Notes under the pieces: model-generated
What the model was told of the DNA's origin: nothing
Seen by the model: only the letters and a program-made list of their open reading frames with translations
Database searches by the model: none
In this document: positions 17,505 through 63,170 of the stretch, in pieces
Position numbering within the stretch: the first letter of the stretch is position 1
Layout of the letters: each line of letters starts with the position of its first letter
Program-made: the position numbers and the translations under genes
Assembly (NCBI GenBank): GCA_973895155.1
Contig: OZ316898.1
Span: 9,762,286 to 9,826,285, forward strand
DNA: 64,000 nt
Origin: Marsupella aquatica
Taxonomy: Eukaryota > Plantae > Marchantiophyta
Direction of reading: 5' to 3'

Positions 17505-18720
17505 GATAGAAGATGTTGAGGTGAGAAAAGATATCAAAGTGCTTTGGATAGAAGATGTTGAAGTGAGAAAAGATATCAAAAAGAGAGAAAAGAATAAAAA
17601 TGGACAGAATATGTTCAGGTGACAAAAAAATACTAAGGAGAGAAAAAGATGTCATGCTAAATAAAATTAGTTGGAGTATCCCTTGGTTATGTAAGCTTGC
17701 TTTATTGAACTATTTGGTGCCATGAAAGGTTGAAATAGATAGATGAAAGGACACATATTAAATGGAGGATTCTAATTGAAGTGACTTTTAAAGGTAGTTA
17801 GGATAATTTCATTGAAGACTAATACGAGTACATTCATGATAATACCTAGGGTAATTCTCCATGCAAAATGTTTCCCTTAATACCTCTATGTCTTACATAT
17901 AACATTCAAGATAGTTCATGCAAATATTACTTTGTCCATAGTAGTTGAAAGGTCTTAGAATCCTTTGGTATTTCTCTACCCATAGTAGTTATGGTGTTTC
18001 TTATCTTTGCTTGTTACTCCCCTATCCATAGTAGCCAAAGGTTGTCTTCAGTTAACTTGGTACATGTTAGAGAAGTTGAAAGGTTTCTTGGGTTTCTTAT
18101 GTTACCTTGATAATGTTAGAATAATTGAAGAGTTTCTTTCTACTTGTCATTATTTCAACAATGTGTAAATTAAATAGGAAATTGAAAAAGATTACCAAAA
18201 AACATTGATATATCAATCACAAGTCATCCAAAGATTACTTTCTTTCACCCCTATTTTACCTTTTTCTTTGTTTATTTCAAATGTTACTTTTCAATTTTCC
18301 ATTGTTCTTGGGTCTAACTGTTTTTTTTTGCCTTGCCTCAAACACAAATAGTCAGATTTGGTTCGATCTTCTTGCATAAATAACGGTTCTTGTTTGTGAC
18401 AAATCATGCTCATGTGGCTACACGTGCATCCATGAATTTTGGAAAGACTTCCCAGGGGGTCCGTAATGATCAAGGTGAGAAAAGAGGTTGAGGTGAGAAA
18501 CTGATGTTGAGGAGAGAAAGAGATGTAAAGAAGAGAAAACTATGTTGAGATGAAAATATGTCAAGGAGAGAAAAAGATATTGTGCTGAGAAAGACGTGTC
18601 AATGTGAGAAAAGATGTTGAGATGAGAAAAAAATATCGATGAGAGAAAAAGATGTTGAGGAGAGAAAACGATGTTGAGGTGAGGAAATGATGTTGAGGAT
18701 CAGAGAAAAATGTAAAAAAC
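17505..18720 (+). repeat. Degenerate ~19-20-bp AG-rich minisatellite (GAGAAAAAGATGTTGAGGT) split by the dispersed repeat
   Basis: Units visible at 17505-17655 and 18470-18720. Confidence 0.65.
17673..18461 (-). repeat. Dispersed ~790-bp repeat, copy 2 (uninterrupted)
   Basis: Reverse complement aligns to 2103-2179 plus 6335-7127. Confidence 0.8.
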
Positions 18721-29369: not shown

Positions 29370-31570
29370 TAGCGACCGTTAGAAGGTGTTGAATCTCATT
29401 TACCCAGAGAAAGAATATGCTGCCCAAAATCTAGCGACTTGCTACCATCCGCCTTTACTAAACCTAAGGTCCTTGCATGCACGTACATCAAAAGTCACTT
29501 CAAGGGTCATTTGAGCTTTAAGGTGCACACGCTGATAACCTATTAGGTTTTTCTTTGCCACGCCGTTCCTGCCACTCCCTGGGGGTACAGCATACAATTT
29601 CACCACAGTACTTCCACTCCTGCTCCCCTCGTTCCTGACCATAACTTCTACACGAAAGCTCAAATTGCCACAAACACTCGCATCATCTTCAATAGGTGGG
29701 TCGGCATCTTCAAGACTGAAAAGTATCTCCCGCTGGGTACTACCTTTTGCTTTGTAGAACGAATCAAGCACAAAGAAGAAGCAGACTTAAAGCTGAATTT
29801 GAAAGAAGTATATGACAACCCATGCCCAAACGCAAATACAGGCTCTCCTGTATAGAAGCGGTAGCTACGGCCAGGATACCCAGCTGAGATATTGGGGCGC
29901 ATATTCATGATTGTCATTGGCACTGTTGGAAAAGACTCTGGATATTGGAAGCTTCCCTCCTGGGTTATAGTCTCCAAAAATTATCCGTGCTAGAGCCTGA
30001 CCACCGGCTTGTCCAGGGTATCCAGCCCAGATGATGCTTGATATGAAGGGGTCCTCTTTAGCAAATGCTACATCTACAGGACCACCTGAAACAACGACAA
30101 GCACAACCGGACCTTTGGCAACTTTGGCGACTTCAGATATGAGCTTTTCTTCATTGCCTGGCAGTAGTAGACTGGTTCGGTCCACACCTTCTACCTCCAT
30201 CGAGAGACTCAACCCCACCACAATGACAACTGCATCAGCTTCAGTTGCTGCAAATGCTGCGTCACTGAAATTTTCATCCTTGCAAAATATATCACTGCAT
30301 GCTGGCCGGTAGTGGATATTGCGAACGTAATCGGATAAACCTTGCAGCGGGTTTATCCCATTACGTGATATATATACAAGGAATTTCTGCATAGTTGCCA
30401 AGTAATCTATTCTCTAGGTCATTTGCACTTGGACTCAGAACAGCCAAGGAATGGGAATTCTCCCAGGACAGCGGCAGTGCACTTTTATCATTCTTAAGAA
30501 GCACAATGCTTTGAAGTGCAGCTTCTAATGCAAGGGTTTGATGCGCTTCGGTACAGACATCATTGACGCTAAGATGTCCGTATCTCTGGCTTTGAGGATC
30601 ACCGTCAAAAAGACCAAGCCGCATTAGCACCGCAAACATATTGCGTAGTGCAACATTCAGATCTGACTCTTTCAGCTTGCCCTGGCTCATAGCCAGTTCT
30701 GCATGATCTCGGTTATCCCACAATTGAGATCTAACCCTGCTAGCAAAGAGTCGGCCACAGCATCCTCCAACGTTTTGGAATAGGCTGGCTCATTGGTCAT
30801 ATCATACACCGTATCACAGTCTGAAACTATGTAACCTTCCAAACCCCAGTTCTCTCGGGCAGTTTCTGTGAGGAAACTGTAGCTGCCACACATGGGTACA
30901 CCGTTCACCCTGTTGTAAGAGCACATCAGACCACTGGCTTTGCCCTCTTGGATACAGCTCTTGAAGGGCGGATTAAATGTGTCCTCCATGTCTTGCTGTG
31001 TTAGAACAGCATTGAAGTGATCACGGTCATCATTACCCCATTTCTCAAGGTCATAAGCCGAGAAATGTTGCAACAAGTTGATGTTTTTAGCATAAAGCCA
31101 GGAAACGAACTGCTCGTTCCCCTCATGAGATCGTCATCTCTCTCTTGCATTCCTCTTACAAATGCAGCTGCGTAGTTGCTTGATAGAACCGGGTCCTCCC
31201 CAGGAGTTTCCTGGCCTCGTCCCCATCTCGGATCTCGAAAGATGTTCACAACTTCACATTGGGCGACCAGAAAGTTAGCCCAGTTTGACCCACATTGTAC
31301 ATTGCCTCGTCATTTGGCCGCCCCGTGGAAAGTTCGAACCATTTGTTGTCAAAGCGACACATACACAGGTGGACGCCAATCAATCAAATCCTCCTCATCC
31401 TGAAGTAATTCAGCCCGTTCTTGTCGATTGGACCAGAGAAGCTCCTGCGAGCCAGCAAGACAGCCTTTTGTGCTGCCTTTCACCTCGATCAAAGGTGAGT
31501 TGAGACACTGGAATGATCGGTTGATCGATTGAGTGACTAATGCAGCTCCTCATTGTATGTTGTATAAATT
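29370..31570 (-). pseudogene. GH3 beta-D-xylosidase/arabinofuranosidase (BXL-like) pseudogene, apparently intronless
   Basis: [65 protein letters not shown] and a C-terminal Fn3-like region; about six frameshifts; fragments abut with no intron-sized gaps. Confidence 0.88.
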
Positions 31571-32069: not shown

Positions 32070-33070
32070 CCTTTGTTATTTAAGTTTCATGTTATTCAAC
32101 AACTAAGTTAGAGCACATGAAGAGTTGCATCCTGGACTAGGTTTGAATATGGAGATGAGGGGGAAAAAAGAGTAGATTATTCATGGTAGTAGGCCATGCA
32201 CAACTTTCCCTTGGTACTCTTATGTCCATAGAGTCCATGCAAAATGTTATAGAAGCCTAAGGGTTTCTTACATTCCTTTGGTATTCTTTTATCCATAGTA
32301 GTTAAAGGGTTTCTTATATTCCCTTGGTGTTCTTTTGTCCATAGTAGCCGAAGGGTTTCTTACATTACCTTGGTAAATGTTACAGTAGTTGAAGAGTTTC
32401 TTTCTACCCATGGTTATTCAAAAAATTGCTAATTAAATAGAAAACTCATACAATCTACTGGAAAACACTGATATAGCAATCACAACCCATCCAAATGTTA
32501 TTTTCTTGGACCCCACTTTTCACCCCTTTCTTTGTTTATTTGAAAAGTTACTTTTCAGTTTTCCATTGGTTGTACAATTACAAGGTCTAACTGTTTTTTT
32601 TACTTGTCTCAAACACAGATAATCTTGTTTGGTACTTTTTGCATAACAAACCCTTCTTGTTTGTGACCAATAGTGCTGACTCCTATACCAATGTAATGCA
32701 TGTTAGGTATTTACTCTTAGGTCTAGGGTTACGACATGTAACCATAGTTAGGCTAACTGTAGTCGGAGATGTGATTAGGTTAACTAACTTGCACACTATA
32801 TTCTAAGCGTTGTGTGCTTGGATAAGTGAAACTAAGGCTCATTGTTAGGGAGCCACTTGAAAGATGAGGAGAGCTTACACTATGGAGACTTGGTATGGCC
32901 GACGGACTTAGAGTTCTGTAAAGCTCTCTTGTGTGTTCCCGTGGACGTAGCCTCAAGGCGGTAAACCACGAATCTCTTGTGTCGACTACTTGTGCGTTGG
33001 ATGTGTCATGTGCCTACCATTGTGAATGTCGTCTATGCTCAACAATGCCCATGTCAGGCTAGAAAGTTTT
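32070..33070 (-). repeat. Dispersed repeat, copy 3 (interrupted by the solo LTR)
   Basis: Similar to copy 2 in the same orientation (CACTGATATAGCAATCACAA, CTTGTTTGTGAC). Confidence 0.7.
32701..33044 (+). mobile_element. Solo LTR related to the copia LTR at 2180
   Basis: TGTTAGG..TTACTCTTAGGTCTAG...GTGTTCCCGTGGACGTAGCCTCA...TGCTCAACA; flanks ATGCA/ATGCC (TSD with 1 mismatch); no PBS or internal sequence. Confidence 0.88.
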
Positions 33071-34718
33071 TAGCCAGCAAATGGACGTTGTTGTACCTAC
33101 TGTGTTTTAGAAGCAAGTCTATGTACTAGGTTATAGAAGCAAGTATATTCATGGGCATCCCCTTCCATTGGGTATCCCTTTTCAATCAATCCAAGAGTAT
33201 CCAAATCATTGGAATACATCTGATGGTACTGGTTTTCTCCCTCCTTTTTCACTTTTGTAAACAGATGGTATGGAAGCTATTGGGTGGGGTAGCTTAGTGG
33301 TTGATTTAGAAAGTGTCAATCTGATGCCCATCCCTCTTCTGATTCATGGTCTGTTTACTAAGGGCATCTCTTAGAAAACCATGAATCGAAAGAGGGATGG
33401 GAAGCTTCCCACCAGATTAATCCCATTTTGATTTATGGTCAAGTAACACTTGGCCTTGAATTTTGGCATATATCTTTGCTATATACTAGGAAAGGAAACT
33501 CCTAGCTCTGTATGGTTAAGTCCTTATTCTGTATTTAATGTATACAGTACTTAGGAAATAGAGTACACCATGAAAAGTGATAAGTCAACTAAATCTCAGA
33601 GGTTAGACATTGTGGTCCATCTGAGAATCACCCCAAAATATGTTGGCGGGTATGTTATTCCACATAGTGATTATAACTATGATCACAGTATGGGCAGAGT
33701 CTACACCTACGAACAAATAAACAGGTGCATGGAATTTAGGCGGTATGCAGGCCATTTAATGCCATAATGCTCCAACAAATTGTCATGTCGAGGGACAGTG
33801 CCTCTTATGCACATCGGCATGTCCCTCGCCTGCCCGCTAGGTATGTAGTTAGGGCTAGTGTACTACCTGAGTTAGCGACATGTTCTTGTAGCAAGTCTGG
33901 GCCGTTCTTGAAGCAAATGTGCTTGTTAGTGTGACGCCAGGACTTTGCTTGCTTAGGGCATGTCTTTCTTTGTGGGTTTTCAGTTCTTCTTGAATCGCTG
34001 TTGACAGAGCTCAGACAGTGCTCGTCAGTTCCGTACACGGGATTCACACAGCGATTCGTTAGATGCTCCCGGCCGATCTTGGCATCCCGCCGATTTTTGA
34101 TTCGATTTCAGTACGATTGTTTCTCTTACGCCTTTTATTCAAGAAGAACTCTGTGGTGAAGGGAAGAAAATTGGAGACGTGCTTCTCAGCTGCTCATGTC
34201 GGTTCAGACAATTCCCATTGAAGCCGGTGCAATTTCTTTGAGCAGCATTGGAATGGCGGGTTAAAAGTTATGGGTTTAATGTGGTGTTATGTGTATACAC
34301 CTAACATCCCCGGTTGAGCCCGTGCTTTTGTTCCCGGCTACCTTCGTGACCCCTTCTGCTATGTGCTGCCTTCGACTGTCACTGCCGACTGCGCATCGAC
34401 AACCGACTTGCTGTCGACTGCCTTTTTCTTTCGCGTTTTTGCCCCTTTTCCAGCGTTTCTTGTTTCCGGCCACGCATGACCACCTCCCGGCCGCCGCGTG
34501 CCCACTTCCCTTCCGACCGCGCGCCCTGTTTTTCTCTTTTTCGCCGTTTCCGGCTGTGGTCTCCCCTTCGCCTCCCTCCCGCATAAGGCAGGCTGCGCAT
34601 AGGGCATCGTGCCCTCTCATTTCTGCCAGCATTTTAATTAAGGAGGAAGGGATCCGACTAGCCAAGCACAAGTGCGAGGGGGGAGACAGAGCCGAGGCAG
34701 CCAGCAACGCAAGGAGTG

Positions 34719-35045
34719 GGCACGAGGCCCTAAGCAACATTAAGGAGAGGAGGGGGAGTACATTCAACTCCCTCTCTCGGGAGTCCTGCTAGGCACGAGG
34801 CCCTAGGCAAGCAATTAAAGCAGGGGGAGGGGGAGACAAGCGCAAGGAGAGGAGGGCACGAGGCCCTATGGAGGATTAAAGAGGGGGGGTTACATTCGAC
34901 TCCTTTCCCTGGAGTCCTTCTGCCACTCTGCCACTCTGCCAGGCACAGAAGCATTCATTAAAGCAGGAGAGGAGGGGGAGCGAGAGTGCCAGGAGAAGGC
35001 ACGAGGCCCTAATAAGTAACATTAAGGAGGGGAGGGGGAGTTAGT
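34719..35045 (+). repeat. Purine-rich repeated modules in the element leader
   Basis: GGCACGAGGCCCTA at 34719, 34792, 34855, 34998, each followed by ATTAA(A)G and GGAGGGGG-like tracts. Confidence 0.8.
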
Positions 35046-35375
35046 CGCTCCCTTCTCTTCGAGAGCACATGAGGAGCCAGGAGGGGGTGCAAAACCCTAT
35101 GCAGGGCCTGAGCCATTGATTGAGACCCCTTTTCTTTTCGTTTTTGGTCGCTGCGCGACCTGCAGCGCCCATGTTTTCCAAATCACAGTGGTTTGTGCAT
35201 AGGCCCTGGTCTTAATTGGGGCCCCATTTCTTTTCTTTCGCTGCGCCCTCGCCTCGCTTCCTCGCTTCGCCGCACTTTTTCCTCCTTAATTAAGTGCTCC
35301 GCAGCCTGTACGTACATAGGGTCTCGTCGCTTTTCCCTTGTGCTTGCCAGTTTCCAGGTCCACAATGGGGCCCGA

Positions 35376-35451
35376 TGTGTATACACTTAAGGGGCCCGTA
35401 TATGTATTCACTTAAGGGGGGGCCGGATGTGTATTCACTAAAAGGGGGTCC
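35376..35451 (+). repeat. Three ~26-bp tandem units ATRTGTATWCACTWAARGGGG
   Basis: Seen directly; related GTATACAC palindromes at ~34293 and ~35576. Confidence 0.7.
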
Positions 35452-37129
35452 ATTTTCAGTGTCTTTTCCCTGCCGCCGGCATTAGGCCATTCCGGACAAT
35501 TGGTCGCCACAGGTCATCTACATCGGGCTGCGGGCCCGGGGTATCCACATGGGACAGCAATCCCACATCGCCTATGTATACACATAGGCAAGCGCGACGG
35601 GGACACAATTTGAGGTTTAAGGGTCCTTTTTTTTCCGACGGTTTTTCGACGGTGACGGGTTTTCTCAGTCTTTATACATTTTGCACATTTTGGGTACTGT
35701 CACACAGCATGTCAGCAGACGAGCTGGGAGGTAGCAGCTCATCGCCACCAACGCCCAGGTACCACTTACGGAGTGATCCACGACCGTTGGTGCCCATTTC
35801 ATTGGAGTCTCGGCAATTTTGACGATGTCAGCAGCCATCAGCAGCACCCACACCACGCAACCCTTCTGCTACATTTGGCGGTCGCTTCACCACTACCCTG
35901 AAGCCTACTATTGCTTCTTTGCCCTTTACTCCTTCTGCATCACTGCTTGTTCCAGCTTCACCGACATACAGCATGGATGCCAGCCACTCATCTGGCCACA
36001 TTGAACGCTTCAGTGGGCGGCCAGGCACTGTTTCTTTACGTGAGTTCAAATCCACTTTCTACACTGTCATTTACGAATTGGAGTTGAAATACGGCAGCAA
36101 TTTCACCAATGCTTTTGCATTTAAGCAGCTAGCCAGGTATGTGCACCACGAGGCTTTGGATGTGTATGAGCAGCACTCTCAACGGCTGCTTGCTGTCACA
36201 CAATTGCCTAACCCTGCCTATGCCACTGCAATTGCGGCTGCCTCACAACTGGCATTACAGAATGCCATTGCAGCCCATGCTGCTGCTCCTGCCACTTCCC
36301 CTCCTACTCCAGTTCCCACCACTGCACCAGTTACTCCCACCATCTTGGCACAGGCTACATCAGGCATTTCTCCCACCATTGATTCCCCTGCCTTTGCGGA
36401 TCCAGTGGCTGAGTTTTTCCAGGTTCTTGAATTGGAATTCCAAATCAAGAGTGCTGACAAAATTATGCAGTTGGCCACCTTTGTGAGGCAGCGCGATGAA
36501 ACATTGAAGATGATGTATCGCCGGCTTCTCAAGCTGAAGGACACCCAGAGCATCACTGACCTGGAAGCTGCTCATCGCTATCTTCGCGCATTGGAGGGCA
36601 CATCAGCTCTCCATTCGCAAGTGTTGCAGCAAGTATTCTCAGAGTTTGGAGACAGCTACACCTTGCTCAATGTCTATGACACTGTTGAGAAACTTGAGTT
36701 GGCCCATGCACATTATGAGGCCAGTATTGCGCGTCCACCGCGATCCAGGTACCAGGCTGCTGCCCCTACAATGGCCCCCCCTTCCCGTGTGCCACAATAT
36801 GCTTCCAAGACCAAACCAGCACATGTTGCTTTCATGCTGTCATCTTGCAACTACTGTGGCAATCCTAATCACAAGGCTAATGATTGTGATATTGTTGCTG
36901 AGGACCTGTCTTGTGATTTTTGCGGGAAAGTGGGCCACTTGGAGGCAGTTTGTTTTGCCAAATTCCCAGAGAGGAAGCAGCTACGACAACAGGCCACTCA
37001 TCCTGCTCCTGTTTCCACTCCCCCACCAGCTAGGAGGGCTCATACTGCATCCGTTGCTCCTCCTTCCAATGGCAAAGCAACCAGTGCCACCAAATTGCCC
37101 AAGCAGCAACAGAAGCTACCCGCTCAGAA

Positions 37130-37767
37130 GGCCTCATTCACAATTGGACGACCCAAAAGGAACGTCACACTCAAAAGTGACCATAGTTTATTATGCTTTA
37201 GGACATCATTTGTAAGGTGTAATGAGATGATATGCAAAATTTGATGTACTATACTTAATAAACATCCTGTAGGTTGGTAACATTAATTAAACTATCTAGC
37301 ATTTGAGACTTTGAAGCTTTCCTTATATGTCCTTCAAAGATCGATAAAATGACTTGTCACGCAACTAGTCACATCATTTCAGCACTCGAAATGACTCTAA
37401 AACTTGCATTTTAGACAATGAAATTTTACCAAGGCATGCATACTAATAGAATAATCTTATATTTTAAAACTCAAATATTGACACACACTAAACCTTTATG
37501 TACAGGACAAAAATAATTAGTAATTTTGGCTTATTTAGGGCCATCAATAATAGGATCCCTTAAAAAAGTTAAAAACTTGATTTATCTACATGGTGAGGTA
37601 GGTTACACCATGTAAAATAGTCTTGTGAAAAAATTAGACTTAAATGTCTTGAGATAAAATCATGATGAAGCTTTTTCCATGTTATGAAAGTCATTTTTCA
37701 CTAAAAAAACATGTTTTTGAGTCCTAAAAGTGGTTCCTATGAGGTACACCCAATTGTGAATGAGGCC
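37130..37767. mobile_element. MITE-like insertion (638 bp, AT-rich) in gag
   Basis: Perfect 18-bp TIR GGCCTCATTCACAATTGG with TSD AGAA (alternatively 17-bp TIR with TSD CAGAAG); removing it restores the gag frame (PAQK-EAHTAQ). Confidence 0.92.
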
Positions 37768-39459
37768 AGAAGGAGGCTCACACTGCACAGGCAACTCAAC
37801 TCCAGTCTCTGACTCATGAGGTTGAGTCCCTACGTGCCCAACTTGCCAACATCAAAGGCAAGTCAACTACCTCTGCTGGTCCTTCTCAACCGGCTGGTCA
37901 CGTGCAACCCATCCCTGGCCCAGGCACCACTGACAGTTCAGCACCTCTACCCCGCTCTTTCTATGGCTTGCCATTTGATGCTCATATGGGTGAGTGTGTG
38001 CTGTCCTCTGCTCCATAGCCTGGCTTTACAGTAGACTTTTCAGATTCATTCTGCCCTTCCTATTTTGCTTACCAGCAGGCCCATGCTGCCTCCCGTATTG
38101 CTCCCACACGCCGCATTGTACAGGCTGATGGTCTTGCTGCTGGTCCTATGACTAGAGCCAGGGGCGCTCGGGCTGTCATGCCCCAATCTTTTCAGCCACT
38201 TACCCTTGCTGAAGAGCACACCTTGTTGGCGAGGGGGGAGGGAGTTGCAGCTACATCCATTCCACCACCAGGTGCTGCTGACATTTCATAGGGAGTTGTT
38301 TCTCCTGAGCTGCTTGAGTATTTCACCTCCGGTATGGCACAAAGGATTCTTACAACTCCACTTTTTAGTTGCCATGATTTACAACTGGATGCTAGAGCTA
38401 TCATCAGAGCGCTAGAGGGCTCACTGCATTCTTCATCAGCCCCTGTGACACCGGTTTTGGAGGTCCAATCTCATGTACATACTGGATCTTCTTCTTCTCC
38501 ATTACATGCTTCCACTGGTTTGGTTATCCCAGTACCAATTTCCAGTGGTAGAGATGACAGTATTGCTGCAGATTGTGTGACCAGAGCTACACTGGATTCT
38601 GGTCATGCTGCTCCATCTTTCCTGACTATGCTGTTGAGTGGAAAGACCGTGGACACTAACTCCCTTCACAAGGTACCTCATCATTTGCCAAAAGTGGTGC
38701 CTAGCGACAAGACTTCAGTTTCCACCACCATTGCCATTGTTGACAACAGGAATTCAGCGGTCAAGTTGGAGGGTCACACTCCTCAAGTGGTCATGCTGGA
38801 CACAGGCGCTCAACCAGTGATATTGGGCATTCAGTTTGCCAAGAAGATGGGACTACTGACTGATCATTTACAGCAATCCAGGTGGCACATTCGGACTGCT
38901 AGTGGCACTGTGGAGGATGTGCTGGGTGAGAGTTCTACTTTACTCACTCTCACTTTTAATGGAGGTACAGATCAGGAATTGCATTTCCCAGTCAGATGTT
39001 TGGTTACCAGTGCCACTACGTATGATGTGCTCATTGGCCAGGAGGCTTTGTTCCCACCAGGTTTTACCATTGACAATTGGCATGAGCATGCATACTACAG
39101 AGTTGATTGGCATACGGATGGCTCACACTTGGGCTACATTCCACTTGATTTGCATGGTGCCCATACACCTATGGCTCACCACTGTGTGTTGAAAGCAGTG
39201 CACACAGCTACCTATGTCAACCACCCATTGCAGGATTGGATTGAGGAGGATGATGATGAGGTGGCTACTGCACATGCTGCTGCACGTATAGCAGCACTTT
39301 CCAGCAACGTGGATCATCAACCAGAGGTGGTACAACGGCTCCAAGCAGCCCATGGACCTTTGGTGGCTGCATTGCGCAAATTTGAGGATCTTGGGCAGCA
39401 CAATGGCCAACCAATAGCCCCAATCTTGAGCGCACCCGTTACATGGACTCCTCCTTCAG

Positions 39460-40400
39460 ATGGCCTTATATTGCTTGAGCTTTTTGGTGGCATTTCTACA
39501 GGCCTGGAAGCTCTCCTACAGTCTGGCATGGTGGTGAAGCAGTACATCTATGTGGATATTGATCCAGGTGCAAGGCAAGTGGCTGAATCCCGTCTGCTGG
39601 AATTTTCAGAGCGATTTCCCCAACAGTTTCCACACAATGCATGGAAATCTGCATTTTCTTTCTTTCCTCCAGATATCCAGCTTGTCCAGCACCGGCACTT
39701 AACCCTTCTTGGCTCCCTTGATTTGATCATAGCTGGTTGGGAATGCCAAGGGTTTTCAGCTGCTGGTCACGGTGCTGGACTGCATGATTCTCGTTCTAGC
39801 CTTTTCACAGCATTGGTTCAGATTCTCACCTGGGCTCAATCCCTTTATCCTGCTGTTGGTTATATCATTGAGAATACTCCATCTCAATTTGACCAGCGTC
39901 CACAGGTCAAAGAGGATTTCAGTGTGGTCCAGCACTACTTGGGACCACCCCTTCTCATTGATGCAGTGCACTGTGGTTCTTATGCACATCGTCTTCGTAA
40001 CTTTTGGACTAACCTTGCACCACCTTCCTTGTTGGAGTTAGCTCTTCACCACACATCCAGGGACACTAACCTCACAGTGGACCAGATTTTGGATCCTGAC
40101 AGTTCTTGCCAACCAGTTACACGGCAAGAGCCAGCACCTTGGTTCCAGCCAATACCATTGGACAGCCCCGTGCTGCTTGGCCTACATTTGTATCCTTTCC
40201 AGGTGCACATGCCTTTCAGGGTGATGGTCCTGGCCTGGTTTATCAACATTCTACCGGTACTTGGGATGAACCTAGTCCTGAGGAGAGAGAACGGGCTATG
40301 GGCTTCCAATCCGGTACTATAGGTCACACCCAGATCACCAGGCTGGCCAGGAATGCTTTACTTGGCAGGGTAATGGATCTTAATGCTCTCACTTGGCTTC
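39460..40400 (+). other. DNMT3-like C5 cytosine methyltransferase domain within the polyprotein (1-bp frameshift at ~40146)
   Basis: Motif I LELFGGISTG, II YVDID, IV IIAGWECQGFS, VI IIENT, VIII IDA..SYAHRLRNFWTNL, IX ERERAMGF, X TRLARNALLGRVMD. Confidence 0.9.
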
Positions 40401-43400
40401 TGGTCACTTGCATCCTTTTTCAGATGTACATTCATCCAGCATCTGGAGTTCCAGCTCTACCACTCCATGGTGCTGCTACATGGCATCCCGACCAGGTGCA
40501 CTTACCTCTATTCAACACTCACCGCTTCAGTCCAAGTGTTGGGGGGGAGGAGGTCCCTTGTAATGTGGCTGATATTATTTTTGAGTTTCATGGTGTGGAC
40601 CAACCCAGATCAGCAGGTACAACAGGCCTTGGAGAGGCCTCATCACCTTATCAGCAGCATGCTAGCAGCTTGGACAGTGGTGAGGCTAGCACTTCTGGCT
40701 CTTCAAGTACGAGTACATCAGGTCCTATTCCTAGTGTTGCCAACTACACATTCATCATGGGCAACCACCTGAGTAAAAGACAGAAGGACCAGCTGCTGAA
40801 TTTGCTCCTCAAGCATGAGAATGTGTTTGCTTTCTCTATGAAGGACTTGGGTAAGTGCAAGACTATGCAGTTCTCCATTGAGTTGGCTGATGAAACACCT
40901 ATCTTCAGGCGGAGACACCGTTTGAGTAAGCATGAGTGGCAGCTGGTGGATGAGAGGTGCCAAGAGCTCTATGAAGCTGGTCTTATTCAGCCATCTACAT
41001 CAGATTTTGCAGCAGCTACAATGATGCCAACAAAGAAGGATTCCAGTGGATTGTGGACAGAGAAGAGCATGTGTGGGGACTACAGGCCACTGAACCTGGT
41101 CATACCCCAGGACAGGTACCCCATGCCACGGCCAGAGGAGCTATTTGACAGCATTGGAGACTCAGACATCTTCACTCTTGTGGATCTAAGGCAAGGCTTC
41201 AACCAGATTTTGCTGCTTGCAAAGGATCGCAAGAAAACAGCTTTCCATGGTAGTAACCAACTATGGGAGTGGTTGGTGATGCCATTTGGCTTGAAGAATG
41301 CGCCCATATTCTTTCAAAGAGTCATGGACCAGGTTCTTCAAGGTGCTGAGTTTCTGAAATGCTACATTGATGATGTGTTGGTCCACAGCAAAGGATTTGA
41401 CCAACATCTACTTGACCTTGAGGAGCTATTCATGAGGCTTAAGAAGGTGAACCTAAAGATACACCCCAAGAAGTGTGAATTTGCTGTCAGATCAGTAGTA
41501 TACCTTGGGCACCGCATTCTTCCAAATGGAACCATGGCTCACTGGGCCAAGGTGGTATCCATCTTGGAAATGCCCACTCCTACCGATGTTCACACTTTGA
41601 GGAGTTTTATTGGGTTGTGCAATTACTATCGGATCTACATCAAAGATTTCAACACCATTGCACACCCATTGTATGCTTTGTTGAAAAAGAATGTGACTTG
41701 GACATGGAGTACAGATGCTGAGGCAGCATTTGCCACTTTGAAGGAGAAGCTCTCAGAATACCCGGTGCTGAGAAGACCTGATTTCAGCAAGGTCTTTGTG
41801 CTCCACACAGATTGGAGTGCCCTTGGGATTGGTGCCATTCTGGGCCAGCATGATGAGGAAGGTAAAGAGTACGTCATTGCCCATGCATCCAGGAGCAACA
41901 ATCAGGCAGAGAGTCATTATTCTTCGTATGAGGGTGAATGCCTTGCTGTTGTGTGGGCTGTCATACATTACAGGCCCTACCTCTATGGGACCAGGTTTGT
42001 CCTCTACATCGACCACTAGCCCTTGAAGTGGTTGATGACCAACGACAAGCTTACTGGCAAGCTTGCTCGTTGGGCGCTCATACTCCAGGAGTATGATTTT
42101 GAGGTAATTCATAGGCCTGGTGTGACACATCAAAATGCTGACACTATGTCCCACAACCCTTTGATTGCCTCTGATGATTCCTCAGATACACGGCAGGATT
42201 TTGACCAGGTTTCCATCCTGCCTACATTTCATGCATCTACCTATCTTGCTTTGCTGCCATGCTACGTTGTTGACCAACCTGTGGTGGACATATGGGAGGA
42301 CAACGACACTCTGAGATTTTTGCGGCATGGGGAGTACCCCATACATGTTACTGCTGCCCAGAGAGACCGAATTCAGCAAAGGTCCAAGCGTTACTTGTGG
42401 AAGGGAGATCATCTCGTGCGCTGCTTGCCAGACAGGGAAGTGGTGGTTCCACCCATTCATGAGAGGGTTGGCCTTATCCGTAAGGTACATTCTGAGCTTG
42501 GTCATTTTGGCGTTAAGAGGACTTACAGCCTCTTGGTCCCTCATTATCATTGGAGAGGCATGCATGGCCAGGTTCGAGATGTTATTGCCCGGTGTGAACA
42601 GTGTGATAGGGCGAGGACTTCTTTCACATCTCGGCAACCCACACTTCATCCACTCCCTATTCAGGGCATGTTTTATCGCTGGTCATGTGATTTGGCTGGA
42701 GAATTACCCCTCACGTCTCGGGGTAATCTTTACATCATGATCATGATAGAGCATTTCTCCAAGTGGATAGAACTTGTGGCATTGCCGGATAAGACTCCCG
42801 TAGCACCAGCCAGGCATTCCTGCAACAAGTTCTTAGTCGCTTTGGAGCTTGTGCAGAATGTCTCACTGACCAGGGCTCAGAGTTTAGAGGAGAGTTCCAG
42901 GAGTTGCTTGATCAGGCCCTCATTGATCATCGCCGGACATCACGAGATCACCCACAGGCAGATGGCTTGGCAGAGCGCATGGTTCAGACATGCAAGAAGG
43001 GTCTCCAGAAGATTTGCCTCACCAAAAACAAGGAGGATTGGGACCTGGCCTTACCCTACATTGCCATGGGGTATAGGATGTCCAGACATGCATCACTGTC
43101 TAACTTTTCTCCCTACTTCTTGTTGTTTGGTCGTCACCCAGTTCCACCTTCTGCTATTGCTGCTCACATGCTTCAGGTGGTAGACTTGGATTCAACTGTG
43201 ACTTGGTCTGATGTGATCTCTGAGAGGGCTGCCCTATTCAGGAGGGTTATGCCCATGGCCATGGAGAATTTGGCCATCGCACAACACAGGGACACATTGC
43301 GTTATGCACACACACGAGGGGGCACTTTTCAGCCCAAGGTCAGGAAGTTTGAAGTGGGAGATTTTGTGTACTTGCAACGGCAAGCTAACGACACCCTGGA

Positions 43401-43577
43401 CACCTCTACCAGTCGTACTATTCTCAGGGTTAAAGCTATTCGACCGTCTGGAGTGCTAGAGTTACAAGGGGCAGATGGGCGCACAATTGCTGACAATGCC
43501 AAGAATTGCGCCCCTTGTCATCTGCCTAACCTGGATCCCACCATTGTGACTCCTACCTGGATTCCACCTGTGGACTA

Positions 43578-43725
43578 CCCTTGCAAAATGTGTTTGCAAA
43601 TTGATGATGCTGACCAGATGCTGCTGTGTGACAATTGCAATGGAGGGTACCATCTTTTCTGCCTTCGGCCTGAACTTACCCAGGTGCCAGAAGGGTTATG
43701 GTTTTGCCCTTCCTGTGCTCCACGT
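43578..43725 (+). other. PHD finger at the integrase C-terminus
   Basis: CKMC..DQMLLCDNCNGGYHLFCLRPELTQVPEGLWFCPSC, a canonical C4HC3 pattern. Confidence 0.92.
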
Positions 43726-44913
43726 GCTACCTGAATTTTCTTCAGCCCTCCTTTTGGCTGTGGTCTGGGGGGGATACAGAGGTTTACACCTCCACTACGT
43801 ACATACCACTTCATTTGCTTTTTCTTGGCACTTGTGAATGTGATTGAACTTTTTCTATGCATGTTGGTTGCTAGCAGCTTGCACATATGCCTTGCCGGTG
43901 ACTTGTATGTTTTTGATACACTATGGCTACGATACTATATGTCACGACAAAATGAGAGCTTAAGCTCAAGTTGGAGGGGCCTATTAATCAGGGGTCAACT
44001 AATGAAATTCATAGGATTCAGATGCGAATAAAATTAGATATATTCAAGTGATGTTAGCAAAAAAATTGAAGATTGTATATGCCTATTATTACCCATAATG
44101 CTTTGGTAACAGGATCTCAATTCAGTTGCCTGAGAGATTTTAATTGTGTACTCATTGATGATAATTATTTTTTGAGGGTTATCCTAGCACTCCTCTGAGA
44201 TTGTAATAACCTGGAGTGACCTCCCCATTGTGCTTAGTTAGCTTTGAACAAAGAAAGTGTGCTGCTAGTTTTTGTCTACAAATATGGATGTGTATTTGTG
44301 TAGTTTCGAAAGGTAAGGCCCATACTTGCTAAACTAACTACTGTACAGTCCCCAAAGGGTTGGGTTATAATCCCTGAGTTAGGGCATCCATTGGAAAGGG
44401 GTGCTTTGGTTCTAAACATCATTCTGTTGGTGCATGGCCATTCAGCCTCCTTGCGCTCTCTCCTTCTGGCACTCATTCTTTGGAAGAGCCTGTTTGATTG
44501 ATTTCTCAATTTGTTGGCAACTACAACAGAAGATTAGGTTGAACAATCTTAGCTCTATTAGTTACTAAGATTTGATATATTGACACATGTTCTGTCTGAA
44601 ATCACTAAAATGCCACACTTTCTTAGGGAACCATAATTCATCAAGTTTGGGGATAATCTATAGTAGAATTCACCATAAAGGTCTACTCACAGCTTATTCC
44701 ATAGACTAAAGTCATAAGTCATAGTTTCTTTGTTAACAGAAATTTTTAATGTTTAGATTATACTTATGAGTAATGGAACGTGCATGAGGAGTCTGGAACA
44801 AGGAGACATTCCTCTGCATACACATGGGTATTCACGCTATGAGAAAGTGCAACAATTCAATTCAGTGGTAATGGGGTGATGCCAATTGTTGTCTTGGTCG
44901 TGCATACAGCATC

Positions 44914-45336
44914 TGGTAGCCAAATTGTGATTATAGATCCAACCATGGTTACTTTAGATTGATCTCAGTTTAAAAAAAATGGTGTCCTAGGAAATTGCTA
45001 TGGTAGCCAAATTGTGATTATAGATCCAACCATGGCTAAGTTAGATTGATCCCGGTTATGAAATTGGCGTTCTAGGAAATTGCTATGGTAGCCAAATTGT
45101 GATTATAAATCCAACCATGGTTAAGTTAGATTGATCCCATCTATGAAAGTGGCGTTCTAGGAAATTGCTATGGGAGCAAATTGTGATTATAGGTCCAACC
45201 ATGGCTAAGTTAGATTGATCCCGGTTATGAAATTGACGTTCTAGGAAATTGCATATGGTAGGCAATTATGATTGTAGATCCATCCATGGTTGAGTTAGAT
45301 TGATCTCGGTTTAAAAAATTGGCGTTCTAGGAAATT
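44914..45336 (+). repeat. ~85-bp tandem repeat, 5 copies, upstream of ARL2
   Basis: Units start at 44914, 45001, 45086, 45171, 45256 (TGGTAGCCAAATTGTGATTATAGATCCAACCATGG...CTAGGAAATTGCTA). Confidence 0.93.
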
Positions 45337-53347: not shown

Positions 53348-56300
53348 ATGGGAACCCTCGGCGCAGCAGCCGGCACGAAATGTCTTGTGAGCGCTGCTAC
53401 TGCTGCTGCAGGGTCGTCCGTTATTGGATCGGATGAGCACTTCTTTCTGAAATCTACAAGATCAAGTTTGCAAGCCTCAGAATTCGTGGGCCCTGTTTCT
53501 TTGAAGGGAATGAGTTCATTCTTAGGATCTTGGACGGAGCTCGGAAATCTCGCTAGAGAAAGGCGGTGCTGTGGCCTTCATTCTACCGCAGCTCAGTCAC
53601 AAAGATTAGAATATGGTACTCGCTCGAGAATCGTCGTCGGCCAGGTGCTGAAGGATTCAAAAAAGGATGATTTTCAAGAGCGCAATTTGCGTGGAGAGTC
53701 GTTAACCAGTAGAACAAGTTCCGGGAATGGCGGAATGGAGAATAGCTGTGGTAGTCGAGAAAGCAGCAGCGAAGAAGAAAAAGAAAAAGAAATAGATAGT
53801 CATCATGACGAGAGACTCAAATTTCGGATAGGGAGGAGAATGTTGTTAGGTGCAGTTTCTATTGGTCTATCCGCCATTTACTCTTCGTCTTCATCAGAAG
53901 GTGCTCGAGCTATGACCGACAGAGGGTTTAAACTCACCAAAGGTTCATGGTTTTTAGGAGATTCGGAGGCAGACTTGGGATCTGATGGGGAGAAGAGGGG
54001 GTTAGGTCCTGGAGAACAGGAGTCTCGAGTGTACGATGCTACAGTCTTGGGCGAACCTGTTGTAATCGGAAGTGATAATAAGGATCGAGTCTGGACTAGG
54101 CTCCTCGAGAATCGTGTCGTCTATTTAGGCGAGGCTGAGAATGTTGCAGGCACTGACGATAAGGTGTGTGAATGTCGGACATCAATCCCCGCTGCTTGAA
54201 TTTCTCTAAATTCTCTTAGGGAGGGACATACTAATGTTACTAAGGTTTTAGTATACACTTATTTCCAGCCGATCAGAAAACTGGAGGGATGTAGTGCAGG
54301 GCCCAGTGCCTTCCTGCGGCTTTCTTTCCTGCAATTTTCCGTCGTTTCCTTGCGAGTTTCATGAGTGAGCCTTCCAATACATCCAGGAACCTTGCAAAAA
54401 GGTTCTGCTTGATGAGTATAACAAGCGAACTGAACTACTGTAAATGTCAGTGTTTTTTCATTATGTGTGTAAAAAACAAAACGGACTATGCGCAAATTGA
54501 ATTGAATCAACTTTGAAGCTTCACGGTACCCTAAACAAACATAGGGATAGAATGCAAATCAGTGGATGACCAGGATCGAAGGCATGGAAACGACTCATGT
54601 TCTGAATTCCCATATTTGCATCTTAGATTGGTGCTTCCTCTCACATTATGTAGACTTTCCTTGGCAAACCGTGGAAAGAGTGGGAACCGACATACAGTCA
54701 TAAGCATTCTTGTGAAGAGGCTATGAAGATTTTCTCCATTTGAGTACAATCATCTAGCATGTAGATTTGGGACTATTGAAGAGCCATGCTGAATCTGAAG
54801 GAAGGTAGAATGAACATACTCATAAACCGAACACCCAGGGTGACAACAAAATTTGTATGTGTTTCTGAAATGGTACTCAGTGTTTGGAAGGGACTGGCAG
54901 TTGCTGGAGCTGGAGATTGTACAAAAGTTGAGAGATAAATGTTTTGAGCAGAAGCGGAGCATATCCATTGCCTTTGAAGCATTCCCTCGTCCATTGCAAG
55001 CACAGCTAAACGCCTATATGAGTCACAAGTAAGACATCTGCTCCGTGGCTTTCTCTGTGATAGTTTGTTGTGCAAGGAATCTGTTGTTGGCAAGTCATCT
55101 TGCTGCACACTGCAATGTGCACATGACCCGTGTGCTATTTATCGTCTTAATAACCGCAGCATATCTACAGCTGCTTGGGAAAGTCCTGAAATGTTCTGGA
55201 CAATTTAATTCGGCGTAACCTGCAGACATATTGTATTGCCGAATGTCGATGGCTCTGGATACAGTTGGGAGCATATTCTCAGAGATTGAGGCCAGATTTG
55301 TCTGTTGGCATGTCTATCAGGTTGACAGATGACGGATTAAGAGAGGTGGCTGTACAGCTGTCAGAAGAGACGTGGCTAGAATACCTGCCAATATTGCAGT
55401 ACTGCAAGAATAGTGGCGTCCGCTTAGTTGCATGTGGTGCACCTAAGGAGGTGCGTTGATGGCTATACTTTCCTTCCCAATGACCCTTTTCAACAGAATT
55501 TCCTTGTGTACCAGTTTCCAATGTGGCCTTACCCTAAGGACAGGTGAAAACATGCAAGAATCATGGGTTTTCTGTTTTTCAGTACAATGGTGACCTGTGA
55601 GTTGTGAGTTTGGCTGATCAATTCAATTGGAAGGTCCAGTCAACTGTGTGGGAAGCAAGCAGTTCCTTCGCAGGCCTTCCAAATCTATTCATTTAAAAGA
55701 GTTTGAGAATAGTCGTGAAGAGGTGATGTACCTTATTTCCCCAATTCACGAAATCCTTTGCCTTGCACAGGTTCTGCGCATTGTCCAGGCTGAAGGGGTG
55801 CAGGCTTTGAACAAAGAGGATAGGCAAAAGTACATTCCGCCTGCTGGTGGTGGCTATAAGTTCAAGTCCTCCCCACGAGACAATTCAGGGTTTCTAGACA
55901 GTTTACCGAATACATCTGGCCTTGTTGGTCCAGGACCGTATAGATTTGCACAGGCTCGAATTGTTGAAGATTACACAATGGCACAGGTTGTTGCTCAAAT
56001 CATATCAGAAGGAGGTGCAGTGGGATTACTAGTAGTTATCACAGGGGCTTCTCACGTGCAATACGGAGCAAGAGGTACAGGCATGCCAGCCTGGATTGCT
56101 AAGAACAAGGAGATGCAGAAGAGAACCCAAGCGGTTGTTTTACTCAATCCTGACAGGCAGCATCTTCGCAGTGAGGGAGATGTGCCAGAGGCTGACTTCT
56201 TATGGTATTCTGCGGCAAAGGTCTGCACAAGAAATTGTTTTGACCGAACAGAGGTTGCACGAGTCATGGGTGCTGCAGGAAGAAGGCGTGATGCTTTGCC

Positions 56301-58268
56301 TAAGGTTTGCTTCATATGCCGATAATCATTTTCACAGGAAGAATGATCTAGAGTAGTGTCATTGATTACATGTTTTCGTGCCCATAAGTAGTTCCCTCTT
56401 AACAATTGATTTGCTGACGGTCACATGCTAGGATTCTTGCCGTTCAATTCGGGGTGTGAGTTGGATACGAGACAGGTGTATAATCTTGGAATACTAAACC
56501 AGTCTAGGGTAACAGAGTTTTGCCCTTCTGCGTTAAGTTTGGAAAGATTCAAAAAAGTACTTTTGGAAAGTTTTCTGCCACCTCGAACATGCTCACACCA
56601 TAACGTGGCTGGAAGTTGCAACTTTTCGTGACGTGAGTTCTGTCTGTACTTGGGCAGGACCTTCAATTAGGACTGAAGCAAGGACTAGTTGCCCCTGAGG
56701 TTCTGGAAAGCTTTTTCGAGCTGGAGCAGAACCCAATAATGGCAGAGTTAACAGGTCGCTTCCAGGTCAGTGTTTCAAAGAAATCCTGTCAAAGCATGAG
56801 TTTGCACTCAGTTGTGGAGAGCATGACACGCTGAAATTTTTGTTTTTGAACTCAGTCAGATGAAGCAAGTTTTGTTTGACCACAATCTTTCGTGGTCTCA
56901 TTGACCTATTTGTTTAACTTCACAATGCAGGGTCTGCGTGAAAGATGGTTTGCGGATCCGCGCTTCTTAGAACGGCTTGCCATAGAGGAGACTATATCAA
57001 TAACAACAACTCTAATTGCCCAGTATGAACGGAGGGGAACTCGTTTCTGGGAAGAACTTGACTATGTTGCCACAGATACTATCCGAGGAGCTGTAGTCGA
57101 CTTCTTCACAGTGTGGCTACCTGCCCCAAGATTATCTTTTAGAGAGATTGACCCAAATGAGACATTTAATACCCTGGATAGCTTAAATGGTTTACTTGGA
57201 TCATTTCCGGACAATGCATTCCAACGACCTCAAGCCGGAGAGAACTGGGGCTTAGGTGAAAGAGTTGGAGGAATTCTTGTAGGTGGACTCAAGCTCTTTG
57301 GTGTTGGGGTCATTTCGTCCATAGGTACCCTGGCTGGTACCAACCTGGTTCTAAGTGCTCGTCAGGTGTTATCTCCTAAAGCCAGTGGAACTTCTCAAAA
57401 CAAGAGATCACCAATCCTGAAAACAGCCCTTGTCTATGGCTCATTTCTTGGGACATCTGCCAATCTAAGATACCAGGTCCACTTCTGACTTGGCCGGTGT
57501 TTGCATCTTGACTCGTCATCTTTCGTTTCTCCAGGATTGAAATGCCCTGCAAATATAGAGCTCTGAAGCTATCTTCTCCTGTGATGCAGGTTATCGCTGG
57601 TGTTGTAGAAAACTGGATAGCTGATTATTGGCTTGCCTCTCAACCTTTAGCTGGCAACTCCCTTTCGTTTGTAGCTCGTACAGCAAATTCATATTTTGGC
57701 ACTGCGGTAAATTCTTTCTCCAAACTCATTCTTCTATGCAGTACGTTTGGGCTCGTCGAGGGCTTTGTTTTGATTCTGACACTGCCATAGGGCTTTCTGT
57801 GCCATAGGGATAGCCGTTGGCACTTTCGGTTTTGTCAGTTTTGGACCTTCCTTTTGTTTCTTGGGAGGTCAATCGTTGTCTGTCTTGGAGACATAGCCGA
57901 GACGGCTTTATATCTGAAATGGGCTTAAAATAAAATCTTCATGGGCTACTTGTAATGCCTTGTGATCTAGTCAGATACATCTGCCTGTTCAGAAACGTCA
58001 AAATGTATGCCAAGTTTGACTGATATCACGTTCCTTGCAGCAATGGGTAGATCTGGCAAGATTTGCTGGCCTTCAAGCGCATAATGACGAGAGCGATTCA
58101 TCTTCTTCCAAACCAGCTTCGGAAGGACAGCGGGATGTCGGGAGCAATTCTGACGATGTGTCAACCTCAACATCATCGCCCATAACTCAGGACCCTGCCA
58201 GTACTTTTGGAGAAAAAGCGGGGAAAATAGATCAACTGAAAGAAAAAATAGAGGTACCGAAGACTTAG
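53348..58268 (+). CDS. RETICULATA-RELATED 5/6-like chloroplast protein (DUF399/ChaN-like plus DUF3411)
   Basis: Eight GT-AG exons (53348-54163, 54901-55028, 55321-55450, 55771-56304, 56658-56765, 56931-57475, 57590-57706, 58041-58268); [88 protein letters not shown]. Confidence 0.9.
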
Positions 58269-60215: not shown

Positions 60216-61116
60216 GCTGATGTCTGTTCAGATGATTCTTCAGCTGCTTTTTGTATGCGTCTCGAACACCGGGGCATATACGTAGCTCCCCGATTTTTCC
60301 GGACCGCTGTTTAGCTGCAGGGCATGAACGACAACAAGAAATTCTCGCCAGAAAGTTAAGGATTGCCGGTTTCATCGAAGAGCCGGCGTTGTCAACACGT
60401 ATGAGGGTTGTCAATAAGTCGATCGGTTTTGCTCGTTTTCGCAATGCGCGTTTGCTTTGTTTTGTTGAAGAGGACGGATTTGACGATGGTGTATTGATTC
60501 GTCGAGGACTCGCGGTACAGAGCTTCCTGGGATTAATAGGGTGGTGCTTGATCGGGCTTTGAAGCTGATTGAGAATTCTGGCAAGGCAGTTACAGTCAGG
60601 GGAAGTACCACAGATGATGCGCGTGTGAAGTTTTCTATCTAGCTTCTGTGGGATTGATTGATTCCCTGATTACCTTGCGAGTTAGGGTTTGATTTGTTGG
60701 AGAGTGGTCGGTCAATTTTCTTGCACTAGACAATTGGCAATCCATTCAGGTGGACAATTCGTTCAGGTGAGCAGTTTGAGTGCAGTATTGTACGTGAGAA
60801 GCGATCCACTGTTGCAGCTGATGGTCATGCGGCAGACTATTGCACTGTGGAACGGTATGGCCTACTAACTTTCAAGGTGATGACTCTCAGACGCGTTTGG
60901 ATTGCTACTCGAGGAATAGAAAGGAGAAGAGAAGAGTCTTTCATTATATCTTACGCTCTCAAGAGTGTCGTCAATTGGACGGTTGATTGTACTATTTTTC
61001 ACTAAGCAATTTCAGGTGTCTGTATCCACTAAGCAACTTCAGGTGTCTGTATCCATTTCAATCCAAGTCCAGAATAAGCCGTCTGTAGAGGTCGCCAACG
61101 CCACCGGCGGTTGAAA

Positions 61117-62354: not shown

Positions 62355-63170
62355 TGTGATCTACAGGACTAGTAAGTCTTTGTTGTGTTGTGCTCTACAG
62401 GACTAATGAGTCTCTAGTTACAAACATGGAAACAGTAGGAAAAACTCCGAGATGAGCAATATTGGTCGAGATCGACAACTTCAGTACTATAGTGATCTAG
62501 AGGACTAGTGAGTCTTTGTTGTGTTGTGATCTACAGGACTAGTGAGTCTACAGTTACAAACATGGAAACAGCAGGAAACTCTCCGAGATGAGAAGTATTG
62601 GTCGAGATCGACAACTTCAGTACAATAGTGAACTACAGGGCTAGTGAGTTTTTGTTGTGTTGTGATCTACAGGACTTGTGAGTCTCTAGTTACAAACATG
62701 GAAACAGTAGGAAAATCTCCGAGATGAGCAATATTGGTCGAGATCGACAACTTCAGTACAATAGAGATCTAGAGGACTAGTGAGTCTTTGTTGTGTTGTG
62801 ATCGACAGGACTAGTGAGTCTACAGTTACAAACATGGAAACAGCAGGAAAATCTCCGAGATGAGAAATATTGGTCGAGATCGATAACTTCAGTACAATAG
62901 TGAACTACAGGACTAGTGAGTCTTTGTTGTGTTGTGATCTACACGGACTAGTGAGTCTCTAGTTACACACATGGAAACAATCGGTAAATCTCCGAGATGA
63001 GAAATATTGGTCGAGATCGACGACTTCAGTACAATAGTGATCTACAGGACCAGTGAGTCTTTGTTGTGATGTGATCTACAGGACAAGTGAGTCTCTAGTT
63101 ACAAATTTTGGAAACAGCAGGAAAATCTCCGAGATGAGAACATTGGTCCGAGATCGACAATTTTAGTACC
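62355..63170 (+). repeat. 136-bp tandem repeat, ~6 copies
   Basis: GAGATCGA anchor recurs at 136-137-bp spacing (ATCG at 62471, 62607, 62743, 62879, 63016, 63153). Confidence 0.95.

Follow-up and report, generated by a model that had tools for sequence, protein, structure and literature searches.

Positions 33,781 to 43,949 of the 64,000-nucleotide stretch of Marsupella aquatica DNA analysed here (contig OZ316898.1; hereafter the window) hold a Ty3/gypsy-type retroelement that is very probably bounded by the two halves of a single long terminal repeat (LTR), its right part (segment A) standing at the left end and its left part (segment B) at the right. The family to which it belongs does possess an LTR, of the form B-GC-A, bounded by a polypurine tract (PPT) and a likely self-priming primer-binding site (PBS), and its route of integration differs from that of textbook LTR elements. 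We put at about 0.58 the probability that its integrase, rather than acting at the ends of the complementary DNA (cDNA), cleaves a palindrome midway along the LTR once those ends have been joined, probably in a circle; the figure covers the whole mechanism, including the free circle.

The ends of the window copy, which spans 33781-43949, were read directly. It starts with TGTCATGTC and finishes with GTCACGACA, which form an inverted match of 7/9 positions of the TG..CA type, and it lies between two copies of AAAT:

33777..33780, no strand: left target-site duplication (TSD) AAAT, by direct reading; 4-bp TSDs are also found in sister copies
43950..43953, no strand: right TSD AAAT, by direct reading

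These ends, the 7/9 match and the flanking AAAT had been noted in a first-pass annotation of the window and proved correct, as did its count of 215 bp after the stop codon of the PHD finger (stop 43732-43734, element end 43949). It had also seen neither a copy of this 3' tail in the leader nor the 5' end repeated at the 3' end, and blastn with word sizes 7 and 4, together with a repeat search, likewise revealed no direct repeat linking the element ends in the window copy. TG..CA ends with a TSD of 4-6 bp are canonical for Ty3/gypsy elements; two direct LTRs at the insertion ends, equally canonical, are seen neither here nor in the two-ended sister copies described below.

Other copies of the window family are visible only as short contigs, which come from six public runs of four studies, one possibly the source of the window itself, and were mapped to the region; the runs X1-X4 represent two of the studies. 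In X1 the summed contig depth, which is no measure of copy number, rises at the left edge from 1,667 in bin 33394-33787 to 137,348 in bin 33788-34181, and at the right edge falls from 105,743 (43638-44031) to 190 (44032-44425). Steps occur at the same edges in X2 and X4, the drop beyond 33781 and 43949 being of around two to three orders of magnitude. At 43949, six X3 contigs part from the sequence and continue into dissimilar flanks (agreement 0.46). The filled site is present in X1, X3 and X4, difference-free short contigs crossing the right junction in all three and the left junction in X3 and X4; no empty site is seen among the contig joints listed for the region in these runs. Homology among copies thus stops at the proposed ends instead of running past them, and 33781 and 43949 are real family ends with a 4-bp TSD.

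The organization of the terminal segments is as follows:

33781..34138, + strand: segment A, 358 bp, representing the right-hand portion of the LTR (probably the end of U3, R and U5), starting TGTCA; placed by contig joints and by alignment to sister A
43774..43949, + strand: segment B, 176 bp, representing the left-hand portion of the LTR (probably the start of U3), ending ACGACA; placed by contig joints, sister B being also 176 bp
43767..43773, + strand: G7 tract, likely PPT (plus-strand primer); B begins at the next base according to the A-B joints
33982..33995, + strand: likely 5' end of the RNA and self-primer AGTTCTTCTTGAAT, complementary without mismatch to the 14 bp at 34137-34150
34137..34150, + strand: likely self-priming PBS, directly at the end of A, recognized by its complementarity to 33982-33995

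Contigs of the family contain both joints between these segments. The end of B is joined to the start of A (43949 to 33781) across GC, giving GACA-GC-TGTC, in X2, X3 and X4, with a one-letter variant in X1-X4, while the end of A is joined to the start of B (34138 to 43774) in 7, 7 and 3 contigs of X1, X2 and X4, respectively, and in X3 too. Because the G-tract precedes B and the likely self-priming PBS adjoins A, B-GC-A is bounded like an LTR and the insertion ends lie inside it. Canonically, the ends used by integrase are those set by the PPT and PBS; here the latter bound 43774 and 34138, whereas the ends of the insertion fall 176 bp into B-GC-A. The first-pass annotation was right to say that the G-tract is not followed by TG, but the tract marks a boundary nonetheless, since contigs join 34138 to 43774. 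Similarly, it had reported no clear PBS for a transfer RNA (tRNA), and none of that type is evident, nor any tRNA gene within the window, but a likely self-priming PBS is present at 34137-34150.

Complementarity between the RNA 5' end and the PBS, a feature of Tf1 and Tcn1 elements, is visible in the sequence and in covariation, the start of the RNA being predicted. A pairing of 12 bp was reached by 26/20,000 shuffles of A, compared with the 14 bp of the window pair. Global alignment of A with sister A scores 108 (shuffles: mean 44, standard deviation 11), and the G-tract occupies the same position in sister loci and in the more distant locus L145.

Longer copies came from a single metagenome scan, the sister loci being the best 80 of 433 stretches, with 69-83% amino acid identity. 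As A and B of the window copy matched only 2/80 of them in local blastn searches, sister ends were defined from locus L053. A or B follows the PHD stop in 74/80 loci, which, when grouped by flank, represent 53 distinct insertions. Their 3' ends are of the form B-A-B in 27, stop at B in 21, read B-A in 2 and run to the contig end in 3. Eight copies have both ends, six being A-coding-B-A-B and two A-coding-B. The TSD matches at 4/4 positions in three of these eight, among them the A-coding-B copy L048, and at 3/4 in a further three. Normal terminal LTR pairs, for which the first-pass annotation had itself allowed, are present in none of the sister loci.

The two kinds of joint behave differently. 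The B-A spacer, read by eye, is always of 2 nt (31/31), namely GC in 13 cases, AC in 7, GT in 6 and AT in 5, the last three apparently being products of G>A or C>T decay of GC. The A-B joint is variable: among 26 examples nine are precise, six are short by 2 nt, seven are of other kinds and four could not be parsed. The transversion distance between A1 and A2 is lowest within their own copy in 5/6 cases, and the mean distance between B1 and B2 is 0.075 within copies versus 0.105 between them (23 copies). The two A segments of a copy, and likewise its two B segments, tend to resemble each other more closely than they do those of other copies, which is the pattern expected from reverse transcription. 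In a tree of 49 insertions (three at contig ends and one with an insertion before B were omitted) the B-only and B-A-B forms are mixed (15 changes versus a shuffle mean of 15.7, P 0.45) and equally old (tip lengths 0.049 versus 0.054, P 0.79).

The sister family has its own self-priming pair, AGTTTTTCTAGAAT / ATTCTAGAAAAACT, which differs from that of the window copy by two compensatory changes and whose primer arm lies around 30 nt behind TATAAAA. Across nine 5' ends the pair measures 13-16 bp in six, with predicted pair probabilities of 0.95-0.97, and 10 bp in one, and has been lost in two.

Some further features of sister copies may be recorded. The last 40 bp of sister B (e.g. L053:8955-8993) contain three spaced ACGACA repeats at the end, the window copy having a decayed version, and in some copies the second ACGACA is where the element stops or where A is joined (B of 159-165 bp in L007, L048, L058 and L065). 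By analogy with the ends of DNA transposons, these repeats could be binding sites for integrase. A second family copy, L054:2111-3500 (- strand), is placed tail-to-tail near the first, and L010:2479-2724 is an A-B joint from which the greater part of A has been lost, the deletion lying at a short shared motif, a pattern expected of end-joining.

More distant support is provided by L145, at 53% amino acid identity to the window element. Here G7 is followed by ACGACAGCTGTCACG and then by a self-priming pair of 13 bp whose sequence is different and whose predicted pair probability is 0.87. The internal palindrome is kept; GACAGCTGTC is found in L145 alone among loci L081-L218. The coding region of L145 (3-6635) consists of an open reading frame (ORF) for gag, protease and methyltransferase that ends in a stop, followed by an in-frame ORF from reverse transcriptase to PHD finger, an arrangement for which read-through or separate expression is possible. 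L145 and the other loci from genome bins are eukaryotic gypsy-type contigs filed under bacteria or archaea, most likely through contamination.

A mechanism that would yield the domain order, ends, TSD, own-family B-GC-A and A-B joints, two sister insertion forms and kept palindrome, all directly observed, can be proposed. Transcription of an A-coding-B-GC-A-B parent would start inside A and end inside the second A. The first 12 or so nucleotides of the RNA would anneal to the PBS and serve as minus-strand primer, as the first 11 RNA bases do in Tf1 (PMC7175516), with the G-tract priming the plus strand. Ordinary strand transfers would then produce a linear [B-GC-A]-coding-[B-GC-A] molecule, the ends of which (ATACA.. 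and ..TTTAT in the window family) would be without TG..CA; the sole TG/CA pair in the LTR of the window family is the palindrome CA-GC-TG inside it. Next, the cDNA ends would be joined, with which the variable A-B joint is in keeping, or a circle with one LTR would form. Joined ends are needed because the left piece B must move behind the right A to give A-coding-B-GC-A-B. Integrase would nick after CA on both strands of CA-GC-TG, leaving two CA-3' ends with 2-nt 5' overhangs; these would be shaped like processed retroviral ends, and their integration would give TG..CA ends and a 4-bp TSD. A 2-LTR circle would become A-coding-B-GC-A-B, and a 1-LTR circle, or a double cut, A-coding-B, as in the window copy. 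The cutting by integrase and the circles are steps that we infer from sequence. Copies of the A-coding-B form would be without the 3' repeat needed for their own copying. They may alternatively derive from later B x B recombination, against which the B-only copies, being no older than the others, tip the balance only slightly beyond even odds.

The chemistry proposed has counterparts elsewhere. Foamy virus integrase in vitro cuts the LTR-LTR palindrome after CA on both strands with 2-nt 5' overhangs (PMC1180852), HIV-1 integrase cuts the palindrome of its own 2-LTR junction (PMC1905944) and, for bacterial DDE transposases, end-end junctions with a short spacer serve as integration substrates (PMC7780238).

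Several observations weigh against cutting on an end-joined circle, or against the evidence adduced for it. A symmetric 2-LTR circle predicts a mirror form, A-B-GC-A-coding-B, and this is seen at 0/10 sister 5' ends; neither does a solo A-B insertion occur in the 80 sister loci, and the TSD is absent from 2/8 two-ended copies. By total distance, A1 is closest to A2 of its own copy in just 3/6 cases, and B1 is closest to its own B2, or tied, in only 9/23, so that the likeness within copies is modest. The type of A-B joint shows no inheritance in a test, of low power, of its being remade each cycle (n=15, P 0.70). In the window copy there is no TATA box within 45 nt upstream of 33982, the primer-PBS pair is missing from the minimum-energy fold (pair probability 0.26), and folding of the 5' RNA lends that pair no support (z -0.60). 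Finally, sister loci are metagenome assemblies in which repeats may be collapsed or mis-joined, and the circular assembly of L145 may itself be a repeat collapse.

Some of these points bear on a route without a free circle, in which the linear cDNA is cut at the palindrome of the 5' LTR, both new ends are held and integrated, and the host links A to B by sealing the two loose cDNA ends within the chromosome; cutting at both palindromes would leave the A-coding-B form of the window copy. All observed junctions agree with such a route, and on a linear molecule the two palindromes occupy different places and are completed at different times, which could explain the missing mirror form. We nevertheless consider it unlikely: it requires a double-strand break to be healed with little loss in most events, given the nine precise joints and six short by 2 nt among 26, and no precedent for it was found in the literature searched.

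Movement at the DNA level must also be considered. Ginger DNA transposons possess TG..CA ends, a 4-bp TSD and a gypsy-like integrase, and have no reverse transcriptase. Integrase might move A..B or A..B-A-B in the manner of a Ginger- or IS3-type transposase, via the short inverted ends, with reverse transcription being secondary. The short TG..CA ends and 4-bp TSDs fit this idea, as does the ability of DDE transposases to integrate end-end junctions across a short spacer (PMC7780238). However, the spacer is fixed as GC and its decay products (31/31) and not taken from the flanks, the A1/A2 and B1/B2 repeats group by copy instead of splitting into lineages of their own, and the different families all retain reverse transcriptase, RNase H, PPT and primer pairing, leaving this explanation with a slim chance. 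The Ginger-type reading in the first-pass annotation fares no better, since the window element, unlike Ginger, encodes reverse transcriptase and RNase H, and its family has a B-GC-A LTR with PPT and likely self-priming PBS.

PAT and Ngaro have the same A1-B1-A2-B2 layout (PMC4157794, PMC5890265), which suggests a third scheme: the RNA would run from A1 to B2, the internal B-A joint would template the joint of the circle and a tyrosine recombinase supplied from elsewhere would integrate it. Yet no recombinase family is represented among the scanned ORFs of the window element or the two long ORFs of L145, the DDE integrase is closest to that of Ty3, the ends are TG..CA with 4-bp TSDs, and the PPT and PBS stand at the A-B boundaries rather than at the element ends, so that its prospects are slimmer still. 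Least probable, and largely refuted, is that an ordinary LTR element was damaged by deletion, nesting or assembly error or, as the first-pass annotation had it, that the element replicates without LTR duplication: the window copy is indeed old and broken and no direct repeat occurs in the window, but identical ends and joints recur in X1-X4, from two studies, and in the 53 sister insertions, difference-free contigs span the junctions, no sister locus shows a normal terminal LTR pair, and the family has a B-GC-A LTR, with both A and B present twice in the fuller sister copies.

The window element may be compared with known systems. Among the closest is KnitGypsy-Dnmt3 of Klebsormidium nitens, for which the legend of Fig. 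4c in de Mendoza et al. (2018, PMC5890265) gives DIRS-type repeats (A-coding-B-A-B) with Gypsy domains; as in the window element, a Gypsy pol is combined with a Dnmt3-like methyltransferase (PMC5890265). The same repeat layout is present in 27/53 sister insertions and implied by the own-family joints, while the window copy is A-coding-B only. The passages of that paper dealing with KnitGypsy-Dnmt3 mention no PBS, PPT, palindrome, TSD, mechanism or PHD finger, and it alone names KnitGypsy in the literature searched. The K. nitens protein P0023, which may belong to KnitGypsy-Dnmt3, lies in the same reverse transcriptase-RNase H clade as the window element (support 0.997). Where the first-pass annotation spoke of a potentially undescribed mechanism, the layout in a Gypsy element with Dnmt3 turns out to have been in print, and no mechanism is given in the passages accompanying it (PMC5890265). 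While the A-coding-B-A-B layout has been printed once already, the literature searched yielded no description of the mapped PBS and PPT, of a conserved attachment palindrome within the LTR or of A-coding-B as a frequent form. No description of a permuted LTR with a DDE integrase was found in the literature searched, most subscription journals lying outside the search.

Self-priming is also predicted in plant Tcn1 elements (PMC6317226). Tf1/Sushi and Tcn1 elements resemble the window element in having an RNA whose 5' end is complementary to a PBS immediately after U5, and no tRNA PBS (PMC7175516, PMC6317226), but they have terminal direct LTRs and mostly chromodomains, in contrast to its PHD finger, methyltransferase and split LTR. 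The split direct repeats A1-B1-A2-B2 of PAT, TOC and Ngaro are seen in sister copies and absent from the window copy; those elements use a tyrosine recombinase rather than a DDE integrase with TG..CA ends and 4-bp TSDs (PMC4157794). Troyka was considered and rejected, as it has true LTRs, CG..CG ends and 3-bp TSDs and has been reported only from animals (PMC12440569).

The palindrome of foamy virus and HIV-1 arises by the joining of cDNA ends, and their usual integration substrate is linear DNA. In the window family the palindrome is part of the LTR sequence itself and would serve as the sole attachment site; nicking after CA on both strands to give processed ends is what they would share (PMC1180852, PMC1905944).

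How widely might the arrangement extend? In a reverse transcriptase-RNase H tree, the window element, the sister family and L145 fall in one clade of 74/129 rows (FastTree support 0.997), which also holds proteins of Klebsormidium, Closterium, Calypogeia, Marchantia and Haematococcus, chromodomain-bearing matches falling outside it. Among named proteins, those nearest to the element's own belong to the liverwort Calypogeia fissa; together with the host gene pieces in the window, the nearest named proteins indicate a green plant, probably at the moss or liverwort level. Genome-bin contigs gave 74 matching loci and, of four placed in the tree, only L145 lies within the clade; viral contigs gave nothing for the window reverse transcriptase, an alignment query retrieving only distant elements at 27-42%. 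DNA ends were readable for three families only (window family, sister family and L145), and we see an even chance that a green-plant-wide Ty3/gypsy clade, spanning algae, Klebsormidium, Closterium, liverworts and the window host, has moved its attachment site to an in-LTR palindrome, with LTR circles as obligatory substrate and the split repeats of PAT and Ngaro as permuted LTRs.

In the textbook view, LTR elements insert linear cDNA by its ends and their circular forms lead nowhere. Whether circular forms might also serve as precursors of integration is an old question. It is among the subjects discussed in PMC1180852. The sequences described here point to a natural family whose integrase site cannot be at the cDNA ends, and to GACA-GC-TGTC as the exact substrate. 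The proposed mechanism would link retroviral-type integrases to junction-integrating bacterial transposases and would let split direct repeats be read in a simple way. Lacking terminal LTR pairs, a high-copy family of this kind is likely to escape LTR-finding software, so counts of the methyltransferase/PHD clade in the genomes of mosses, liverworts and algae may be too low.

Between segments A and B the window copy contains the following:

34151..35972, + strand: non-coding leader with short G-rich tandem repeats (34708-35041, 35367-35446), from the repeat search
35973..38759, + strand: gag-like region with a CCHC knuckle (36843-36890), interrupted by a 638-bp insertion and by stops at 38016 and 38289
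37130..37767, no strand: nested insertion of 638 bp, non-coding, whose terminal inverted repeats match perfectly over 18 bp, with AGAA on both sides, from the repeat search and direct reading
38760..39050, + strand: aspartic protease domain (PF13975, E 6.7e-7)
39468..40400 (end approximate), + strand: C5 cytosine methyltransferase, Dnmt3-like, within pol (PF00145, E 1.8e-6), with a frame change near 40145
40946..42094, + strand: reverse transcriptase (YIDD) and RNase H, with a stop at 42017
42452..43581 (end approximate), + strand: integrase with H2C2 finger and D-D-E core (WSCD, TDQG, GLAERM), with a frame change near 42796
43582..43734, + strand: PHD finger (PF00628, E 1.6e-11) and stop codon (43732-43734)

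The order is that of Ty3/gypsy elements, gag being followed by protease, reverse transcriptase, RNase H and integrase, with the methyltransferase sitting between protease and reverse transcriptase and the PHD finger after integrase. For the 82% relative P0002, the best solved match of the region from reverse transcriptase to integrase is Ty3 Gag-Pol (E 1e-94), and the D-D-E triad is present in the window copy. What follows the integrase is a PHD finger rather than a chromodomain. The top solved match of the methyltransferase is DNMT3A, a weak one (E 0.002). Many relatives of 1000-1150 amino acids carry only the part from reverse transcriptase to PHD finger. The window copy is dead, being broken by the three stops, the two frame changes and the 638-bp insertion. 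The latter has inverted ends GGCCTCA..TGAGGCC and AGAA as a 4-bp duplication; insertion-free contigs join 37125 to 37770, and no further copy of it is present in the window or the 80 sister loci.

Three leader ORFs of 126-170 amino acids have no Pfam match. The leader appears to be a fast-changing region with tandem repeats of around 70 and 26 bp, its contig depth being far below that of A and the coding part and its small rearrangement joints many.

Around the element, an imperfect inverted repeat (33327-33401, 24-bp arms 27 bp apart) lies 380 bp to the left, and around five copies of an 85-bp tandem repeat (44889-45336) lie 1 kb to the right. Elsewhere the window contains a Copia-type reverse transcriptase fragment (4266-5531, PF07727), two dispersed repeat families (2180-2524, 5990-6334 and 32701-33046; 6333-7126 and 17674-18398) and a 136-bp tandem array (62356-63173). 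Pieces of host genes are recognizable at 29865-30413 (- strand, glycosyl hydrolase 3), 55618-57488 (+ strand, ChaN plus RETICULATA-like) and 61078-62202 (+ strand, Sir2).

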